From Methanobacteriota archaeon (GTDB lineage Archaea > Thermoplasmatota > Thermoplasmata > SG8-5 > JAGLSY01), in contig JAEHCO010000005.1 in assembly GCA_020697715.1 (NCBI GenBank), positions 32,001 through 96,000 on the forward strand: a stretch of DNA of 64,000 nt, written 5' to 3'. Below are positions 2,245 to 50,091 of the stretch, piece by piece (position 1 is the stretch's first letter; each line of letters begins with the position of its first letter). The position numbers were made by a program, and so were the translations under genes. The notes under the pieces are model-generated. The model saw nothing but the letters and a program-made list of their open reading frames with translations, did no database searches and was not told where the DNA came from.

Positions 2245-3633
2245 TCACAGCTTACTTGGTTTTTTATGCGCTGGGTGATAGGCATTTATGATCTTATTAT
2301 CGATCTTCGTAAGAGAAGCCTCTGGTATGTGGGACAGTAGATCCCAGCATATACCCAATGTCTCCTCGATCGGCCTATCATCCTCATATCCCTGCCTGAC
2401 AACTTTATCCTCGAAGCCATCCGCGAAGTCCAGATATTTTCTGTCAGCTTCGGATAGAGCTTCCTTTCCAATTATGGACACCAGTGATCGCAGGTCTTTG
2501 CCATTAGCGTATACCGCGTAACACTGATCGGATACCGCTTTGTGATCCTCACGCGTCATGCCCTTTCCAATACCGGAATCCATCAGTCTTGACAATGATC
2601 CAGATATATCGATAGGTGGGTAGATACCCTGCCTGTGCAGATCTCTTGAAACGATGATCTGGCCCTCGGTGATATACGCACTCAGGTCAGGTATCGGATG
2701 TGTGATGTCATCATCCGGCATGGAAAGAATTGGGATCTGTGTTATGGTACCCTTTCTTCCCTTTATCCTGCCCGCTCGCTCGTACATGGTGGCAAGATCG
2801 GTGTACATGTAACCCGGATATCCTCTCCTGCCAGGAACCTCTTCCCTGGCAGCTCCTATCTGCCTCAAGGCCTCGCAATAGTTCGTTATGTCTGTTAGAA
2901 TGATCAGGACGTGCATGTCGAGATCGAAAGCCAGATATTCGGCGGCTGTCAATGCCATCTTCGGTGTGATAAGACGCTCAATTGTTGGATCATTGGCCAG
3001 ATTCAGGAACACGACCGATTTCTTGATCGCACCAGTTCTCTCGAACTCCCTCATGAAATGCTGTGCTTCCTCATTGGTGATACCCATGGCTGCAAATACC
3101 ACAGCAAATTCCTCTACTTCGGCCAACACCTTCGCGTTCTTGGCTATCTGAAGCGCGATGTCATTGTGCGGAAGACCGCTACCAGAGAAAATTGGAAGTT
3201 TCTGGCCTCTCACCAAAGTGAACATACCGTCTATCGTGGATATGCCAGTCTGAATGAATTCCTTTGGCTTCTCACGAGCATAAGGATTGATAGCTCCGAC
3301 AATTATCTCTTTCTTTTCTTTGGGTATGATCGGTGGCCCGCCATCCAATGGCTGGCCAGCACCGCTCAGGATCCTGCCTATTATATCGGGTGAAACACCC
3401 AGCTTCACAGTCTCTCCCAGGAATTTCACGGTCGAATTCCTGTCGATACCGTCAGTTCCCTCGAAGACCTGGACAACCACCATGTCTTTTGAAGTATCAA
3501 GGACCTGGCCTCTCTTCCTGCTTCCATCGGAGAGTGTGATGTCCACTATCTCGCCATAGCCCACATGCTCTGTTTTCTCGAGGAAGACCAGGGGGCCAGC
3601 TATCTCCGTGATAGTTCGATATTCTTTTCTCAT
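2245..3633 (-). CDS. atpB: A/V-type ATP synthase subunit B
   Basis: [52 protein letters not shown]. Start ATG at 3633 after SD GGAGGG. Confidence 0.98.
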
Positions 3634-3689
3634 TGTGAATCCCTCCACTTCGCTACGGGCTTATCAATGCGCTCCTTGCAGTCGCTCAT
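3630..3689 (-). other. Mini-[22 protein letters not shown] bridging atpA and atpB (double-hairpin element)
   Basis: Its ATG overlaps the atpA stop (ATGA, 3686-3689) and its TGA overlaps the atpB start (ATGA, 3630-3633). Hairpin ATCAATG...CATTGAT. Confidence 0.6.
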
Positions 3690-5476
3690 TGATTCACCTC
3701 TTTGAGTTTCTCCACCTTACTGGATGGTTCAGCTTCTCCTCTCATGTCCGTGCATTCGCCCATCATGCAGTCCATGACCTTTTTCAATTCTGCATCGAAC
3801 TCGGGTTCGTATTTGACCTTCGCAAGGTCGTCCTTGGATTTCATGGACATTATCTTCGTGATCGGCACACCTACTGAAAGCAGGTCCATTGAATCATCAT
3901 TGAACTTCTTGATACAATCAATTAAATTCTCCTGTCTGGATGGTTTACAGAAGGTGTCCACATCGTGGAATGCATTTTGCTGAAGGAAGTATTCTCTCAA
4001 CATCCTGGCCACCTCGAGCAACACACGCTGATCATCCGGTAATGCATCGGCTCCAACGAGCTGAACTATCTCCTGTAACTCGGCTTCTTTCTGGAGAACT
4101 CCCATAGCCCATTTTACCTTGCTGGACCAATCTTTGTCCACATTCTCACTGAACCATGGGTCCAATGACTGTGAATATAAACTATATGAATTCAACCAGT
4201 TGACAGCAGGGAAATGCCTTCTTTCCCTGAGCTTGGTATCCAGAGCCCAGAAGACCTTGACGATCCTCAATGTGGCTTGCGTAACTGGTTCGGAGAAATC
4301 CCCACCCTGTGGAGATACAGCCCCGATAACAGATACCGAGCCTTCCTTTCCATTGAGCCCGCTCACACGGCCAGCTCTCTCATAGAAAGCGGATAATTTG
4401 GATGACAGGTAAGCTGGATATCCTTCTTCCCCAGGCATTTCTTCCAGCCTGGAGGATATCTCTCTCATCGCCTCGGCCCATCTTGATGTTGAATCAGCCA
4501 TCAGTGCGATATCATAGCCCATATCACGATAATACTCGGCCATCGTGATACCTGTGTAAACTGAAGCTTCTCTTGCAGCCACTGGCATATTGGAGGTATT
4601 GGCTATCAGGATCGTCCTGTCCATAAGAGGAGCACCTGTCTGCGGATCCTCCAGTTCGGGGAATTCCTTGAGCACATCGGCCATCTCATTGCCCCTTTCA
4701 CCACAGCCGACATATACGACCATGTCCGCGTCACTCCACTTGGCCAGCTGATGCTCGGTGACTGTCTTCCCAGTTCCGAATCCACCTGGAATTGCAGCAG
4801 TTCCGCCCTTGGCTATCGGGAAGAAAGTGTCCAGAACCCTCTGACCTGTGATAAGTGGTATATCGGGTGCGAGTTTTTCCACGATCGGCCTGGGGTTTCT
4901 AACTGGCCAATTGTGATACATCTTCAACTTATCGCCACCGTCCAGTGTTGCGATTATCTCATCGATATTGAAATCTCCACCCTTGATATCCGTGATCGTG
5001 CCAGATATTCCAGGGGGCACCATGATATAATGCTTGATATTCTTGGATTCCTGAACCCAGCCAATTATCGAGTTCGGAGATACTTCATCGCCCACATTGG
5101 CTGTTGGATTGAATGTCCATATCTTTTCGTGATCCAGACCAGGTACATTGACCCCTCTCTCAATGATGTCACCCATCTTCTCCTGAAGCACTTCCAGGGG
5201 TCTCTGAATTCCATCATATATGCTTGTCAGAAGCCCGGGCCCGAGTTCCGCAGTCAATGGCTCGCCGGTATCCGTAACTGGCTCACCTGGGCGGATACCC
5301 GAGGTATCCTCATAGACCTGGATGATGCTCTTTTCTCCAATTATCTGGATAACCTCTCCCATCAGCTTTTCCTCGCCGACGAATACCACATCAAACATCC
5401 TAGGCTCTATGCCAGTTACCGTGACCACAGGACCTGCAACCCTGAAGATCTCACCTGTTCCTTTCTCTTCGCTCAT
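3686..5476 (-). CDS. atpA: A/V-type ATP synthase subunit A
   Basis: P-loop [29 protein letters not shown]. Start MSEEKG at 5476. No intein seen. Confidence 0.98.
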
Positions 5477-5480
5477 TCTT

Positions 5481-5783
5481 TCATCCTCCTTTGAATAGAT
5501 CAATTCCAATAACTCTCTTAACTTTCTCTCTCAGGTCGCTCTCTTCTTCTCTGCCAACAGCGACAACGACCGGGCTGACGGATGCCAAGAATTTTCTTCT
5601 GGACTCTTCCGACAGCGATTGAAGGGACGAGTTGTGTATCACCACGATTCCAACATCCTCATCCTGCATAATCTCATTAAGTTTATTTTCGATATCCACA
5701 TCATTCGCGACATGGATCTTTCTGATACCAACAAGCTGATAGCCCAGCACGAAATCATTTGTACCCAATACAGCCAGTTCCAT
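5481..5783 (-). CDS. atpF: A/V-type ATP synthase subunit F
   Basis: [18 protein letters not shown] and [13 protein letters not shown]. Confidence 0.95.
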
Positions 5784-5897
5784 TCAGACCATCTCCTGTA
5801 TCGAGGATGGTGTAAAATGAAATGCTTTTATCCATTTCATTCAGACCATCTCCTGTCGGGGATGTTGTAAAATGAAAAATATCTTGATGTTTTTCAT
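5784..5897 (-). repeat. Two tandem 57-bp double-hairpin units, each an 18-aa mini-ORF (MKNIKIFFILQHPRQEMV at 5841-5897; MKWIKAFHFTPSSIQEMV at 5784-5840)
   Basis: Both units read ATGAAA...TTTCATTTTACA...CAGGAGATGGTCTGA. They fill the atpC-atpF gap exactly, with TGA-ATG junctions throughout. Confidence 0.85.
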
Positions 5898-6980
5898 TCA
5901 GTTCACCAGCAATCCCCTTATCGTGTCAATGTCCAGGCCGCTCTCTTTTCCTCTTGCGATTATCCGTAGATTATCTACTTCTATCTTCTTAAGAATCAGA
6001 TAATTCAGAATGGGAAGCACGGATAATGGATACACCTTGGCGAACTTGTCCGCCTGCTTGAGCAAGTGTTTCTCCGCCTGCCTGGTCATCTCGTTCAATG
6101 TCATTTTCTCCTCAACTTTTTCAGAGGCTTCCGCAATGTCCTCGTAGAAGGAGAACCTTTGAAGTTCTCCTATGAACTGCTGATACGAGGTCGCGGCCAA
6201 TAATGCCTTCATACCCGCACCCTTCAGTTCTCCTCCACCAGGTATCATATACTGCTCGGGATCATTGATGCCTTTTTCATGCAATATCAGATCGAATTTT
6301 ATCTTCATAAGAGTTGTAAGATTCTCAATATCTATCTCTTTCTTTATGAAGTTCAGGAAAAGGGCTGTGGAACGAGATTTGACCGCGGATGCGGATGTGA
6401 TAAGTGTAGCATAATACGCCTTGTCTATCTCATTCTCAAAGGATATTAGAGTTGTTATGGCGGTTGATTCTCCAATATTCCTCATAGCTTTCTCAAGTGA
6501 GTGATGATACGGCGTGCCTTTCAGGCCAGCTATGACCTCGGGGATCGAGCCAGACCTTGCCAATTCCTCAAGTTTTGCCATCTTCATGGTCCCACTGGGT
6601 GTCAATTCCGCGATTATCGCTTCTGCATCTGCTTCGTGAAATTTACCTCTGAGAATTGTCTTTATATTCCATACATCCACCTTCCCAAGATAATGGCTTA
6701 CCAGATCCTTTAATTGACCCTCACAGAAGGTCATTATCTGATTATATATCATAGCCAGATTGGCATTGGTAGCCCTCTCAACAAGAGCCGCTCCCGAGAA
6801 ATCAGATGATAGTTTCTCGATCTCGGCCTTATACTGGCTGTCTCCGATATATCTGGATATACCTGGCAAGTCCATGACTGAAAGCCTTAGATATTCATCC
6901 TTCTGAATAAGGAAGCGTCTCTTGGCCCTTACCCTTGTACAGGCATAGGGATAATTACTGGATGCACGACTGAACTTCAA
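5898..6980 (-). CDS. atpC: A/V-type ATP synthase subunit C
   Basis: NYPYACTRVRAK, DVWNIKTILRGK, KKIEVDNLRIIARGK. Probable TTG start at 6980 after SD GAGGGTGA; start is uncertain. Confidence 0.93.
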   Translation of the reverse strand: MKFSRASSNYPYACTRVRAKRRFLIQKDEYLRLSVMDLPGISRYIGDSQYKAEIEKLSSDFSGAALVERATNANLAMIYNQIMTFCEGQLKDLVSHYLGKVDVWNIKTILRGKFHEADAEAIIAELTPSGTMKMAKLEELARSGSIPEVIAGLKGTPYHHSLEKAMRNIGESTAITTLISFENEIDKAYYATLITSASAVKSRSTALFLNFIKKEIDIENLTTLMKIKFDLILHEKGINDPEQYMIPGGGELKGAGMKALLAATSYQQFIGELQRFSFYEDIAEASEKVEEKMTLNEMTRQAEKHLLKQADKFAKVYPLSVLPILNYLILKKIEVDNLRIIARGKESGLDIDTIRGLLVN

Positions 6981-6991
6981 ACTTTTCACCC

Positions 6992-7552
6992 TCACTTGAA
7001 GAGCATGTCGGCCACTTCGCCGATCCTCTCCGCCCATAGTTCCTCAAGAAGCATCTCGTAGGTGAGATTCAATCTCTGAGTTCTATCCGAGCTCTCTATT
7101 ATCATCCCGCCAGAACATTTTATGGTTCCAGCGAATTGGTACTGAGACGCCAATCTCTTAACAGCAACAGAATCCTCTTCATTGGAATACACAGAGCCAC
7201 TTGGAATGATCTGGACAGCCTGTTTTATCAGGCCATTTATGATCTGTTCCTTCTTAGGCGTGGAAGCAGCTATCAAGCTCTGGAAGGTCTTTTCCTTGAC
7301 CTTGTCCAGTATCTCTTTTTCAGCTGTAAGTCTATCCCTTCGACCCTCTACATCGGCCGATGATACTTCCTGCTCCTTGTTCAGTTTTATCTGCTTCTCA
7401 GCTTTTTCTCTAGCCTGGGTAACCAATGCTTTAGCCTCTGTCTCTGCCTTATTGATTATCTGAAGTGTTTCCTGTCCGCCCTGTTTGATTATGATATTGG
7501 ACTCACGTTTACCCTTCTCGATCACCTTTTTCGCGACTTCGTCTAAGCTCAT
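6992..7552 (-). CDS. atpE: A/V-type ATP synthase subunit E
   Basis: MSLDEV, N-terminal coiled coil, GGMIIESSD, VADMLF; operon position. Confidence 0.93.
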   Translation of the reverse strand: MSLDEVAKKVIEKGKRESNIIIKQGGQETLQIINKAETEAKALVTQAREKAEKQIKLNKEQEVSSADVEGRRDRLTAEKEILDKVKEKTFQSLIAASTPKKEQIINGLIKQAVQIIPSGSVYSNEEDSVAVKRLASQYQFAGTIKCSGGMIIESSDRTQRLNLTYEMLLEELWAERIGEVADMLFK

Positions 7553-7569
7553 TTGCTAACCTCTTTCAT

Positions 7570-37145: not shown

Positions 37146-37260
37146 AAATATAATTTGTTAAGTTCATCAATAAGAATTATCCAGACCTATAACTATATAT
37201 ATTACCCATTATTTTATCAGCCTTTACATATAATATTTAACGAACACATCCAGAGGAGTT

Positions 37261-37412
37261 AGTATGCGAGAACATAGTGATTGCATACAGAGCTTCAAAA
37301 AATTGAAGCTTTGAATGCATGAATGAATTCGCGCATACTAAACCTCTACATTGAATGTGTGAACTTGTTTCGCACATTCAAAAACTCGAACGAAGTGAGA
37401 GATTCAATATGG
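37261..37412 (+). repeat. Cluster of about 3 hairpin elements and short ORFs in the glnA leader
   Basis: GTATGCGA...TTGCATAC; TTGAATGCATGAATGAATTCGCGCAT; TTGAATGTGTGAACTTGTTTCGCACATTCA...GAGAGATTCAATATGG. The last resembles the element upstream of rps6e. Confidence 0.65.
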
Positions 37413-37423
37413 AGAGGTTAAAA

Positions 37424-38851
37424 ATGACGACCAAAGAGCAGGCAAATGAGATATTGAAAAAAGAGAATGTCAAATGGGTGGAGGTCCAGTTCAGCGATGT
37501 CTTCGGCAGGAACAGATGTGTCTTCCTTCCTGTACGCAAGTTCGTGGATGGCCACGCATGGGAGCGCGGCGTGAATTTCGATGGGTCTTCCATCGGGTTC
37601 CTGGCCACGGATGACAGTGACATGAATGCCTATCCAGATCCAAATACCTTGATGATCCTACCTTTTGAAGATTCTCCAGGTGAAAAGACCGCCATCGTCA
37701 TATGCGACATAAGGGATGTGAATACGAAACAAAACTTTCCTGGCGATCCGAGAAGCATTGCGAAGAACTCAGAAAGAGTTCTTGGCGAGCGTGGTTTTGA
37801 TGGCGTAAATATTCTATCCGAGATGGAATTCTTCGTTTTCAAATCCATGGAGGCCGCCCAGATAGAGAATGATGTCTGGGGTATGGATTCCAATATAGGT
37901 GGAGGAAGCCTCAAGGTCATTCCAACCCACATCAAGCCATTGGTGGATCATGATTATATCATCAAGCCCAAGCAGGGTTATTTCCTCGCCCCTCCAGAAG
38001 ATAGAGTGGCGGGATATCGTCACCAGCTTTCAAACCTCATGGAGGAATTTGGATTCCCTGTCAAGTACCATCATCATGAAAATGGTAATGGCCAGCATGA
38101 GATAGAATTTGAATTCATAGAAGGAGTCACAAAGCCCGCGGATGCCTGCGTGATCTTCAAGCAGATGTCCAGATTATTGTCACAGGACAGAGGATTCGTT
38201 CCAACTTTCATGCCAAAGCCGCTTTTCGCGGACCTGGGCAGTGGCCAGCATGCGCATCAATACCTTACAAAAGATGGAAAGAATGCATTTTTCGATGCGG
38301 ATGATCCCGATCATTTATCCCAGATAGGCAGGTACTATATCGGTGGAATATTGGAATATGCCAGTGATATGGCCGCGATCACCAATCCGATCACGAATTC
38401 CTACAAGAGATTGATACCAGAATTTGAAGCTCCAGTCTTCAAATCATGGTCCTTCAGGAACCGCACTGCCCTGATAAGAGTGGCAGCACCCACTCACAAG
38501 GCCCATATCGATGTGGAGCCAAGACAGGCAGACCCCACATGCAATCCGTATCTCGCATATTCCCTATTCATCCATGCTGGACTTGAGGGGATCAAGAAGA
38601 AGATCGATCCTGGCGAGCCAGTTATCGGCGATGTGACCAAGCTTTCAAAGAGGGAGATGAAGGAGAAGGGAATAGAGATCCTGCCAACAACCCTCGAGAA
38701 CGCACTGGAATTCATGGAGACATCGGATTTCGTGAAGGGCATTTTGGGCCAGAACTTATTCGACCACTACCTTGAAAAGAAACATGAGGAACTATTCGCC
38801 AAGAGGATCTATGTGTCTCCTTGGGAACATTACATGTACTTCAATAGTTGA
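37424..38851 (+). CDS. glnA: Glutamine synthetase type I
   Basis: FDGSSIGF, EMEFF, HHENGNGQHEI, TFMPKP, GSGQHAH, NSYKRLIPEFEAP, NRTALIR, ADPTCNPYLA. The frame is open back to an ATG at 37355. Confidence 0.95.
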   Translation: MTTKEQANEILKKENVKWVEVQFSDVFGRNRCVFLPVRKFVDGHAWERGVNFDGSSIGFLATDDSDMNAYPDPNTLMILPFEDSPGEKTAIVICDIRDVNTKQNFPGDPRSIAKNSERVLGERGFDGVNILSEMEFFVFKSMEAAQIENDVWGMDSNIGGGSLKVIPTHIKPLVDHDYIIKPKQGYFLAPPEDRVAGYRHQLSNLMEEFGFPVKYHHHENGNGQHEIEFEFIEGVTKPADACVIFKQMSRLLSQDRGFVPTFMPKPLFADLGSGQHAHQYLTKDGKNAFFDADDPDHLSQIGRYYIGGILEYASDMAAITNPITNSYKRLIPEFEAPVFKSWSFRNRTALIRVAAPTHKAHIDVEPRQADPTCNPYLAYSLFIHAGLEGIKKKIDPGEPVIGDVTKLSKREMKEKGIEILPTTLENALEFMETSDFVKGILGQNLFDHYLEKKHEELFAKRIYVSPWEHYMYFNS

Positions 38852-44769: not shown

Positions 44770-47700
44770 ATGAAGCACAATTCACCCATAAAATCGAACG
44801 ATATAGGATCTGCCATAATTCCACAGTCCAAGGGCTTTACCAATGGTAATTCCAGCCATAACCATACGGGATTCACCAATGGAAGCACAAAAGCGCAGAA
44901 GGACATGACCGTGATCGGTGGGATGACCAATGGCATTAGGAACTCTGGCATGGTGAATGGCAGTGGAATGGTAAATGGTAGTGGACTCGTTAATGGTAAC
45001 GGTCTTGTCAATGGAAATGGCATGGTCAACGGCAATGGTTTGGTTAATGGAAGCGGACTCGTTAATGGCAACGGCCTTGTCAACGGCAATGGGCTTGTCA
45101 ATGGAAATGGCATGGTGAATGGCAGTGGAATGGTAAATGGAACTGGCATGACCAATGGCCTGGTCGGCACACCAAGGCTCAGTATTAACAATAAGGCCAT
45201 GGCTCCGAAAAAGACCTCGTATGTTCTGATAGTGGTCTTCATATTGATGATAACTTCGTCCTTTGCAGTATTGACTGGAACAGACGATGAAGCTATTATC
45301 GAGGGCATCTCGGTCGATGGAATATTCGAGGATTGGACAGAAGAACCACTGACAACGGATACTGGTTCCGTGACCACGCAGTCACTGGACATAGATTCAT
45401 ACGGTGTATCCACAAATGATGATGGACATTCCTTCATATATGCGAAGGCAAAAGGGAATTGGATGTCATCAGCAGAAGCCCAGAGTCTTCTGGTCTTCAT
45501 TGATTCTGATAATTCCGCGAGTACTGGCTATTCCATAGAAGGAATTGGCGCGGACAATGTATTGGATATCTATGGATGGGATGGAAAGATATCTGGCAAG
45601 CAATTTGGTGAGTTCATAGGCGCGGACAATAATGATTATTCATGGAGATTCTCAAGTATTCAGGCGAGCGCGGTCAATAATGAACTGGAGGCCAGCATAC
45701 CGAAAGTACTGGATGCAAATGCTAAGTTATTGTTCATGACCCGTAGCGGCAACTCTGTAACCGAGATATGCAATGCTCACATCTCCGAGGGAAAGGGATC
45801 ACTGATTGTTGAGCAGATACCGAAGGATGTGAATGGCATAGTATCAGCAAATTCAGTATTGGATCTCAAGCTCACAGCATATGGAGAGGATATCACTGTC
45901 AACAGTATCACATTCAGCAATATTGGTATCACAGCATCTGTAGCCGGATTGCCAGTTACGATCACAGCTGGCCAGACATCGACACTCAGCGCGAGCGGAA
46001 GTATCACATCCCTCGGTGATGGAACCTTCATAAGCACCAAGGTATCCAGCATTACATCGAATGGAGTTAATTCCATAATCGGAGACGGGGTCAAGGCCTA
46101 TGTGAACTCCGGTCCAGATGATATCAACATCGATGGGGCTTTCGCCGACTGGACAGGAATCAGCAGATCATCCGACACACAAGGAGATGTTGATAATCCA
46201 GACATCGATACTTTGGAATATGCTGCCACCAACTCCACCAATGATGCTTTCTTCTACCTGAAGATCGATCCAAATGGTATGATGATGGGGGGTAGTCAAG
46301 TACCTCATGGCAGACATAAGGCCACTTCCACAGGAGGAGGCGAAACCACACCTCCAGGCGAGCCAGGAACTCCATCAACACCAGCACCATTGATAAGGAC
46401 TGGTGGAGAAGATATGTCCAGAATATATGTGGATACAAAAGCAGGCGGACAGAAAGTGGGCGGCATCGAAGCCGACTTTTTGATAGAGATCAAGGGGATC
46501 GATGGAGATATCACCTCGAGTAAATTATATGGCCTACCAGCAAAGAATTTCATTCGTGATGTTCCAGCAGGAAATGGAATAACAGAATTGGAAACTGGCG
46601 TACCAATTGACGATATAGATTATATTGGCATCATGCAGGTTTATTTCCAATCAACCGACTGGAAGAGCAATATGGACGACACAGACCCTTATACTCTGAT
46701 TCCAGCATTGCAGAATATCACGCTGAACAATACAGGTAATGGAACAAGGAGCGGGGGTGAATACGAGACTGACGATTACGGAACAGCCTCGGTCTTTGAA
46801 TCTGCATCCACATTATACACCTCCATAGTTTATGACACATCAACTGGCAATATCGTGGTCGCATACCAGGGAGCGAGCAATGATGGAACTGCAGTTGTAG
46901 GAACCGTGTCTGGAGACGCCATCACATTCGGAACTCCAGCAACCTTCACAACTGGCCTTATATCAGCAACTTGGGTATCCGCAGCATTCGACTCGAACAA
47001 TAACAAGGTGGTGATATCATATCGTGGAGAATTTGGATATGGACATGCGATAGTTCCTTCAATAACTGGCACGACCATATCATTCCCAACAGCGGCAACG
47101 GTATTCGCTGTGGGAAGCACGATCTATACTGCTACCACCTTCGACCCATCAACCAACAGGATAGTGATATCTTATCAGAATCAAACTGCTGGAGGACAAG
47201 GAAGGGCAAGGGTTGGGGTAGTAAGTGGCACAACCATATCTTTCCCATCACCGGAAGTGGCCTTTGAAACCACAGGAACCACATATATTTCATCCACATT
47301 CGATTCTACCAATAACAAAGTAGTAACTGTTTATCAGACCGCGGCTGGTGCCAAGGCAAGGGTCGGAACTGTATCGGGCACGACAATCAACTATGGTACT
47401 GCAGTGACTTACACCACAAGCAATACCAACTACATCTCCACAACTTTCGATACCACGAATGGCAAAGTGATCATAGCCTACACGGATGTGACCAATTCCT
47501 TCAATGGAACAGCAATAGTCGGAACTGTATCGGGTACAGACATCAGTTTCGGAACAGCTGCCGTATATGAAGCTGGCGCAACTCACAGCAATGCCATTAC
47601 CTATAATTCTGTGACTGGACAATTGATGATCGCCTACAGAGAGACCATTTCAAATTACGGAAAAGGTGTATTGGGATCAGTATCCGGCACAGACATCAGT

Positions 47701-49549: not shown

Positions 49550-49629
49550 GCTCGCTCATGCTCATTTATACTTAATCTATATATATTAAAAGGCTATGTA
49601 GCGGTCTACTCTGTCACAGGTAATGTGGA

Positions 49630-49699
49630 TTGAATGAGCGAACTGGGTTCGCGCATGCAGAACTTCGAAAGAGGTTCGAAATGGAGAGATTCAATATGG
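49630..49699 (+). repeat. Double-hairpin element supplying the SD/ATG region of rps6e
   Basis: TTGAATGAGCGAACTGGGTTCGCGCATGCA...GAGAGATTCAATATGG. 24/30 identity plus a 16/16 exact tail against 37351-37412. Confidence 0.75.
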
Positions 49700-50091
49700 T
49701 TGAATTCAAAGCAAATATATCTGACCAGAAATCAGGAAAGTCCTATCAAAGGGAAATAAGCGGCCATCAGGCCAGTGCACTTCTAGGTAAGAAGATAGGA
49801 GATACAGTAGATGGTATCTTCATGGAAATGCCTGGATACAAGCTGGAGATAACTGGTGGTAGCGATAAAGATGGTTTTAGCATGAGGAAGGACCTTCCAG
49901 GGCCACGCAGAAAGAAACTTCTTGTATCAAAGGGTATTGGCTTCAACCCCAATAAGGACGGCGAGAGGAGAAGGAAGAACTACAGAGGAGATACAATATC
50001 TCCAGACATAGTTCAGCTTAATCTGAAGATCGCCAGAATGGGGCCAAAGAAAGTGGAAGATCTTCTTGGCTCCCCAGAGGAGACAAAATGA
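49696..50091 (+). CDS. rps6e: 30S ribosomal protein S6e
   Basis: [33 protein letters not shown]. Confidence 0.95.

Follow-up and report, generated by a model that had tools for sequence, protein, structure and literature searches.

Several described systems resemble in part the element reported here, a tandem pair of 57-nucleotide (nt) mini-open reading frames (mini-ORFs) that fills the space between atpC and atpF in the archaeal A-type ATPase operon of a Methanobacteriota archaeon. The operon lies on the minus strand of a 64,000-nt stretch of contig JAEHCO010000005.1, which in its full length is called the window below. Repetitive extragenic palindromic sequences and bacterial interspersed mosaic elements (REP/BIME), which go with RAYT (Y1) transposases, are short palindromic transcribed bacterial repeats in operons that often form arrays and can affect mRNA stability; REPs lie for the most part downstream of genes and have neither an ORF nor a ribosome-binding site. 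Rickettsia palindromic elements (RPE) are selfish palindromic repeats that are tolerated because they are translatable; they insert inside genes and become part of the protein. Mycobacterial interspersed repetitive units (MIRUs) are 40 to 100 bp long, occur at 41 loci of which 12 vary in copy number (PMC2734929), and insert at start codons with a coupled internal ORF (PMC12548453). MIRUs stand between operon genes in the gene's orientation, form tandem arrays that vary in copy number, and couple a small internal ORF to the downstream start through a -4 overlap, insertion at the start codon being thought to be of low cost. Engineered bicistronic designs (PMC12548453) likewise use a short ORF that ends at the target start and contains a Shine-Dalgarno sequence, which removes dependence on local structure. 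Natural archaeal gene pairs coupled by termination-reinitiation have junctions of the forms ATGA, TGATG, and TGA/ATG (the slash marks direct contact) and are preferentially subunits of complexes, and a spacer of ~20 nt almost abolishes termination-reinitiation in Haloferax volcanii and E. coli (PMC10666635).

We read the two units as a tandemly duplicated, lineage-specific, MIRU-like insert that would be self-neutralising, preserving termination-reinitiation coupling across the junction it occupies; we give this reading a probability of about 0.55. It draws on a dispersed repeat family of the same architecture, described below, which is MIRU-like in its 56- to 57-nt units, its ~48 copies, its arrays, its presence or absence between sister species, and its tiling of junctions through ATGA and TGA/ATG. 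The likeness is meant as one of functional kind, not of descent; the two belong to different domains of life, and no sequence relation is expected. In contrast to MIRUs, each archaeal unit brings its GGAG and a pair of covarying hairpins, and many of the copies lie in 5' leaders; the atpC/atpF units are single-locus sequences whose copy number is 0, 1, or 2 between species. Unlike REP/BIME, every archaeal copy faces a downstream start, and Y1 genes are unrelated to the distribution of the repeat. The units are like RPE in being palindromic repeats that stay translatable, but they stand between genes as separate mini-ORFs. They use the junction grammar of the archaeal coupled pairs, but the pairs described so far consist of two real genes, whereas here non-coding-like mini-ORFs are chained between genes. 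Bicistronic designs differ in being synthetic and single and in being neither repeated nor mobile. A literature search for an archaeal element of such a kind found no paper describing one: the kind is known from mycobacteria, and the archaeal version bearing hairpins and a Shine-Dalgarno sequence was not found in print.

The genome of the window (G000) is a 2.12-Mb assembly of 34 contigs that is 93.8% complete. Its ATPase genes have the order atpI-K-E-C-F-A-B (Table 1), with names assigned from gene order and from tblastn between relatives. The atpC stop and the atpF ATG are 114 nt apart, and translation of this stretch in the frame that the two genes share gives N, stop, MKNIKIFFILQHPRQEMV, stop, MKWIKAFHFTPSSIQEMV, stop, M. 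Each unit consists of an ATG touching the previous TGA, 18 codons, and a TGA touching the next ATG, with zero spacer bases, and has GGAG located 8 nt before its end. A preliminary description of the locus had reported exactly this tandem, spacerless, single-frame arrangement, and both translation and Tandem Repeats Finder (5781-5901, period 57, 2.1 copies, 80% matches, 6% indels, score 145) bear it out. Aligned to each other, the units have 46 identities in 59 columns and one 2-nt gap each; the -2/+2 compensation noted in that description is therefore real, and the unit middles are read in different frames, with the middle of the peptide changed. Unit 1 folds at -12.1 kcal/mol (z, -1.64), a value equalled by 10 of 200 shuffles, and unit 2 at -17.9 kcal/mol (z, -3.41), equalled by 1 of 200. 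In both units hairpin 2 pairs the GGAG, in agreement with the earlier statement that it buries the Shine-Dalgarno sequence. The covariation claimed for hairpin 1 holds in part: two apical pairs are exchanged between the units, with both sides changed, but the single unit of the sister species has no hairpin 1.

The same junction was compared in the sister species (G003), in two congeners (G001 and G002), in a further relative of the same family-level clade (G004), and in more distant genomes. G003 is the closest, with Atp proteins 85 to 98% identical versus 65 to 93% for G001 and G002. Against the 114-nt spacer of G000, there are 59 nt in G003 (one unit), 14 nt in G001, and 0 nt in G002, so the copy-number comparison among relatives proposed earlier gives a series of 0, 0 (+14 nt), 1, and 2 units. 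The G003 unit is a 20-codon ORF with an ATGA overlap on the atpC stop at its start and TGA/ATG at its end; the G001 spacer is tiled by a 5-codon ORF (ATGA overlap, then TAA/ATG); and the G002 junction is a direct TGA/ATG. All three non-zero spacers (G000, G003, and G001) are tiled by mini-ORFs in this way. The three units, two in G000 and one in G003, end in the same 16 nt, CAGGAGATGGTCTGA plus the A of the ATG that follows. As a separate observation, GGGGGAT in the G001 spacer resembles the Shine-Dalgarno end of the dispersed-family units. In all 12 more distant relatives the spacer is ≤8 nt: 10 of 10 loci (L012 to L021) have a 1-nt TGATG overlap, with GGTGATC within the end of atpC, and the other outgroups have 8 nt (G004) and 1 nt (G024). 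Because the relatives have overlaps or near-zero spacers, the tight junction, a stop-start contact of the sort that supports coupled translation, is ancestral. Judged from these spacers, the insert arose either in the lineage of G000 and G003 or earlier in the genus, in which case it was lost again, and only G000 has the second unit. Scans for AtpF in metagenome and genome contigs returned only the two congeners already known and distant relatives that are 44 to 52% identical.

The preliminary description had also proposed a genome-wide search for copies of the units, and none was found elsewhere. In the 2.12-Mb G000 assembly, blastn-short gave only self-matches and matches of ≤21 nt with E values of ≥0.04; a profile of units 1 and 2 found no further copy in G000; and BLAST over the five genomes of the family-level clade matched only a 29-nt 3' end in G003. 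The sequence is unique to the locus. The repeat family came to light when mini-ORFs in contact with long ORFs at both ends were listed mechanically and several cases of ~60 nt proved to be alike. Iterated nhmmer searches in G000 gave 50 matches at E values of <1e-3, of which 47 were non-redundant. In a MAFFT alignment of 36 full-length copies, two helices have 91.2% of their cells paired versus 27 to 42% when the partners are slid, and compensatory changes on both sides occur in 17 of 18 pairs; 0 of 500 shuffles reach the observed values. Since one helix position is G-U in 22 of the 36 copies, RNA on the sense strand fits better than a DNA palindrome. The unit layout over 56 to 57 nt has TGA plus ATG in the 5' arm of hairpin 1, a hairpin 2 that ends beside GGAG, and an ATG 7 to 8 nt further on.

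Two covariance models were used, R1, built without the copy at the atpA/atpB junction of the same operon, and R2, built only from 113 copies of other genomes. That copy, which neither model had been built from, matched both strongly (Table 1). Searches of 41 genomes, counting matches at E values of ≤1e-3, gave 48 copies in G000, 68 in G001, 39 in G002, 53 in G003, and 31 in G004, and arrays are present at several loci. Four neighbouring-family genomes (G016, G019, G020, and G021) have 2 to 5 matches each, with a best E value of 8.4e-11, and so the family extends beyond the clade at low copy number; there were zero matches in the remaining 32 genomes. At the gathering threshold, Rfam 15 found one tRNA only in the whole window and no family for the units or repeats, and scans by E value of 5400-6300 and 37150-37500 yielded nothing beyond sub-threshold matches at chance level. 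No link to RAYT/Y1 transposases was found, the distribution of Y1 being unrelated to that of the repeat: PF01797 is present in 22 of the 41 genomes, including many without the repeat, and was not found in the incomplete assemblies of G002 (74%; 39 copies) and G004 (83%; 31 copies).

One pattern in the family concerns where its copies remain open. Copies were divided into junction copies, in which the 5' arm of hairpin 1 contains the end of a frame open for ≥80 codons, and leader copies, which comprise all others; a copy was tiled if a mini-ORF starts in that arm and its stop ends -6 to +10 nt from the gene's ATG. In G000, 34 of 47 copies stand directly before a same-strand ORF of ≥60 codons, the rest being 3 internal array units and 10 copies without such an ORF within 12 nt. 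ATG mini-ORFs tile 11 of 13 junction copies but only 2 of 21 leader copies (7 of 21 with any start codon; Fisher P = 1.8e-5). The corresponding values are 7/7 and 3/13 in G001, 10/11 and 2/15 in G003, and 8/10 and 7/12 in G004, after removal of 17 rows in which no downstream ORF could be called and 1 in which the upstream side was unknown. Pooled over these three relatives they are 25/28 and 12/40 (Fisher P = 1.2e-6), although copies in related genomes are partly orthologous and the tests therefore overstate independence. Leader copies are frequently without an ATG or have early stops. Most junction pairs code for subunits of complexes (hydrogenase, TldD/PmbA, split transketolase, HMG-CoA synthase/thiolase, S4/S11, and AtpA/B), and leader copies precede genes for ribosomal proteins S6e, S8e, L3, and L10e, NAC, proteasome alpha, glutamine synthetase, ATP-citrate lyase, and others. 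The family-wide contrast shows open frames kept where coupling would be at stake. Among G000 spacers that hold a family copy, 15 of 22 are tiled versus 2.2 expected from shuffles; among co-directional spacers of 8 to 150 nt without a copy, 55 of 441 are tiled versus 34.0 expected (z, 4.4), which hints that relay ORFs are favoured more generally in G000 spacers. Beside these counts, we note that the 17-nt atpK/atpE spacer is tiled by a 6-codon mini-ORF, MKEVSK-stop, with TGA/ATG at its start and an ATGA overlap at its end (Table 1); at the same place G003 has MKIERG-stop, ending 3 nt upstream of the atpE ATG.

Copies of the family come and go. Turnover was examined for the 30 best G003 copies with both flanks on one G000 contig. 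At 14 of the 30 sites the orthologous G000 site is empty, being 48 to 60 nt shorter; the extra segment lies exactly between the Shine-Dalgarno sequence or stop and the ATG, often with short direct repeats of the ribosome-binding region flanking it. At another ~11 sites both species have the insert, in some cases with unequal numbers of units, and the remaining 5 were not classifiable. Same-site copies in G000 and G003 are 54 to 86% identical, and their hairpin-1 subtype can differ. One site (L095) has a copy in G003 and G001 but none in G000 or G004, so that either precise loss or repeated gain occurs; two further sites checked for polarity had flanks unmatched in G001 and G002. At atpA/atpB, G000 has one unit, G002 has at least 3 units running to the contig end, and G003 has zero. 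The G003 junction (L089, 5850-6010) reads TGA-5 nt-ATG within an adjacent 9-nt direct repeat, which looks like the footprint of a lost unit.

The atpC/atpF units have much in common with this family: 57-nt length, exact placement, orientation, the tandem habit, both hairpins, and an ending of the form GGAG-N7-TGA/ATG. They abut both codons in tandem, and filled sites of the family are 48 to 60 nt longer than empty ones. Hairpin 1 with TGA plus ATG and hairpin 2 with GGAG occur in both G000 units and are absent from the orthologous G003 unit. We lean slightly toward descent of the units, as decayed copies, from the clade's 56- to 57-nt two-hairpin family. Two other origins were considered. The units are not C/D box small RNAs (sRNAs): they begin AUGAAAA and AUGAAAU and lack the second GA of the C box RUGAUGA, and there was no Rfam snoRNA match; only the G003 unit has AUGAUGA...CUGA, without recognisable internal C'/D' boxes. 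As an aside, the atpF/atpA overlap has a sub-threshold Rfam match to the archaeal C/D box sR17 (18.8 bits versus a gathering threshold of 36; E value, 0.086; Table 1) that is probably due to chance. Origin by tandem duplication across atpC/atpF was not adopted, having modest support for unit 2 alone. An alignment model of the atpF 5' end plus the atpC 3' end was equalled by 12 to 24 of 2,000 shuffles for unit 2, by 597 to 1,901 of 2,000 for unit 1, and by 92 of 2,000 for the G003 unit, and much of its score comes from the shared last 8 to 10 nt.

If the preferred reading is correct, a ribosome terminating on atpC would reinitiate on unit 1, then on unit 2, and then on atpF. Termination-reinitiation needs overlap or near-contact, and therefore an untranslated insert of 57 to 114 nt should uncouple atpC and atpF; if the insert is an ORF in contact with the gene on either side, the coupling that such a spacer would break should be kept. 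Hairpin 1, with its stop and start, and hairpin 2, with its Shine-Dalgarno sequence, would be opened by the arriving ribosome and would otherwise hinder independent initiation. The hairpins could thus enforce dependence on an upstream ribosome, or they could stabilise the RNA. An actual relay of ribosomes, and any effect on subunit ratios, is inferred from the sequence.

A number of observations weigh against this reading. The statistical tests of family membership are all weak or negative. Unit 2 matches R1 in register at 9.5 bits, with an E value of 5 in the window and 0.016 in a 201-nt search, in which an antisense match reached 7.7 bits (E value, 0.039), and it matches R2 in register at 10.6 bits, with an E value of 1.7 in the window and a rank of 14 among 38. 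Unit 1 and the G003 unit have no in-register match to the family models, and a profile of units 1 and 2 has zero family copies among its top 40 matches. The best local score against 149 copies is equalled by 45 of 400 control gene starts for unit 2 and by 177 of 400 for unit 1. The G003 unit has no significant fold (z, +1.04) and lacks hairpin 1; the hairpins were therefore not an ancestral requirement, and selection on RNA structure at the locus rests on two paralogous units only. The unit interiors are 0.55 to 0.70 identical and so diverge at about the neutral rate: when G000 and G003 are compared, the four-fold degenerate positions of the neighbouring genes have an identity of 0.69 (630/913). 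Because atpF has its own GGAG 8 nt upstream, it could initiate without a relay. The tiling evidence is weakened not only by the partial orthology of copies but also by the 7 of 12 leader copies tiled in G004 and by crude gene calls (longest-ORF heuristics), and the tiling of junctions could partly be built in at insertion and not selected later. Of the claims in the preliminary description, that of selection on structure and translatability rather than on the peptide stands insofar as the open frame is kept and the peptide is not conserved, but the structure is missing in G003; that of a relay or self-neutralising element fits the tiling of an architecturally identical family, but the membership of the atpC/atpF units in it is not statistically supported.

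Several of these points fit a neutral leftover, a tolerated short insert or junction duplication that later became tandem, with atpF initiating at its own Shine-Dalgarno sequence. The open frames would be inherited from the duplicated junction, and the hairpins would be by-products of a quasi-palindrome, their apparent covariation due to DNA template-switch correction. We consider this account unlikely, though the likeliest of the alternatives. It agrees with the divergence of the unit interior and with the missing fold in G003, and each unit closes with a repeat of the ancestral end of atpC followed by ATG. The duplication model aligns to unit 2 better than all but the few shuffles mentioned, and by our estimates chance alone would make two 2-nt indels compensate each other in roughly one case of two and would often leave a short AT-rich frame open. 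However, unit 1 does not fit that model and the G003 unit fits it only marginally, with a score largely from the shared 3' end. Against neutrality also stand the tiling of every non-zero spacer at this junction, three independent cases, the difference in tiling between junctions and leaders of the family, and the loss of coupling with ~20 nt of untranslated spacer in tested species (PMC10666635).

Alternatively, the RNA structure itself may be the function: between the cistrons, the hairpins would signal processing, stability, or attenuation and thereby fix how much I, K, E, and C is made relative to F, A, and B, and the ORFs would be secondary. The fold of unit 2, the two-sided changes in the apical pairs of hairpin 1, the strong covariation of the family helices with G-U pairs on the sense strand, and leader copies that, judged from their flanks, would place hairpin 1 near the mRNA 5' end all speak for a structural role. 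Unit 1 also contains a T5 run, and oligo-T tracts can terminate archaeal transcription. But the G003 unit is unstructured, two congeners and all outgroups manage without any such insert, and zero Rfam families match; moreover, A-type ATPases have an A3B3 excess, which attenuation before atpA and atpB would oppose. We judge this explanation improbable. That the mini-ORFs encode functional micro-proteins, such as small ATPase-associated peptides, is very improbable: there are open ATG frames and a GGAG upstream of unit 2 and of atpF, but units 1 and 2 use different frames for the middle of the peptide, the G003 peptide has only the C-terminal QEMV (encoded by the Shine-Dalgarno/stop region) in common with them, and neither the two congeners nor any outgroup has the ORFs. 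Least credible of all is an assembly artefact in which a single unit was duplicated. A search for sequencing runs listed one DNA run (7% of sampled words) and no RNA run; contigs of the DNA run cover 4800-4861 and 5304-5669 and not the junction. But the copies differ at 13 of 59 alignment columns, about one-fifth of positions, including two indels, and divergence of this kind is not something that assemblers produce. Together with the homologous unit at the same site in the independent G003 assembly, this makes duplication by the assembler unlikely.

The coordinates of the operon, the units, and the family copies in the window are given in Table 1, which also lists a tandem repeat elsewhere in the window that is probably a repetitive coding stretch.

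Table 1. Features of the window (positions 1 to 64,000)
Feature	Position	Strand	Basis or remark
atpI	9904-7913	-	gene order
atpK	7899-7570	-	gene order
Mini-ORF in atpK/atpE spacer	7549..7569	-	
atpE	7552-6992	-	gene order
atpC	7037-5898	-	gene order
atpC stop TGA	5898..5900	-	abuts unit 1 ATG directly
atpC/atpF spacer	between atpC stop (5900-5898) and atpF ATG (5783-5781)	-	
Unit 1, 57-nt mini-ORF (MKNIKIFFILQHPRQEMV, stop)	5841..5897	-	translation, Tandem Repeats Finder
Hairpin 1 of unit 1, 10-bp stem	5870..5899	-	fold of 5841-5900; 5' arm is GA of atpC TGA plus unit-1 ATG
Hairpin 2 of unit 1	5847..5864	-	fold; pairs GGAG 5850-5853 preceding unit-2 ATG
Unit 2, 57-nt mini-ORF (MKWIKAFHFTPSSIQEMV, stop)	5784..5840	-	translation, Tandem Repeats Finder
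Hairpin 1 of unit 2, 10-bp stem	5815..5842	-	fold of 5784-5843; 5' arm is GA of unit-1 TGA plus unit-2 ATG
Hairpin 2 of unit 2	5788..5811	-	fold; pairs GGAG 5793-5796, the Shine-Dalgarno sequence for atpF
atpF (100 aa)	5783-5481	-	ATG abuts unit 2 TGA; tblastn between relatives
Match to sR17 in atpF/atpA overlap	5498-5552	-	Rfam, sub-threshold
atpA	5509-3686	-	gene order
Family copy at atpA/atpB, read as 60-nt mini-ORF with ATGA overlaps on both sides	copy 3624-3707, ORF 3630..3689	-	R1, 67.1 bits, E 4.5e-13; R2, 68.9 bits, E 7.7e-15
atpB	from 3633	-	gene order
Two tandem family copies before glutamine synthetase gene (Pfam Gln-synt_N/C)	37246-37324, 37337-37418	+	43.2 and 58.8 bits
Tandem repeat, periods 18/54/72	44946-45159		score up to 236
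Family copy before ribosomal protein S6e	49616-49705	+	55.1 bits; 6-nt insertion in hairpin-2 loop

Taken more broadly, we tentatively propose, at somewhat less than even odds, that the clade carries undescribed mobile elements of 56 to 57 nt, structured as RNA and seeking ribosome-binding sites, which land at start codons with their own Shine-Dalgarno sequence and are kept open only between coupled genes. The atpC/atpF pair would then be an old, decayed tandem copy, and chains of mini-ORFs would be a natural archaeal answer to the distance limit on termination-reinitiation. Such mini-ORFs are invisible to gene callers and distort start calls; in the mechanically made ORF list, for example, atpB begins at a GTG within the atpA/atpB copy. 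Variation in unit number could be used to type strains of uncultured lineages, and the units are ready-made portable ribosome-binding modules. If ribosomes do relay through chained mini-ORFs, the junction is a natural experiment on the archaeal reinitiation distance limit, with matched genomes that have 0, 1, and 2 units. The dispersed family would be an archaeal counterpart of MIRUs, and the strategy of inserting at a start codon and staying translatable would have been arrived at twice.

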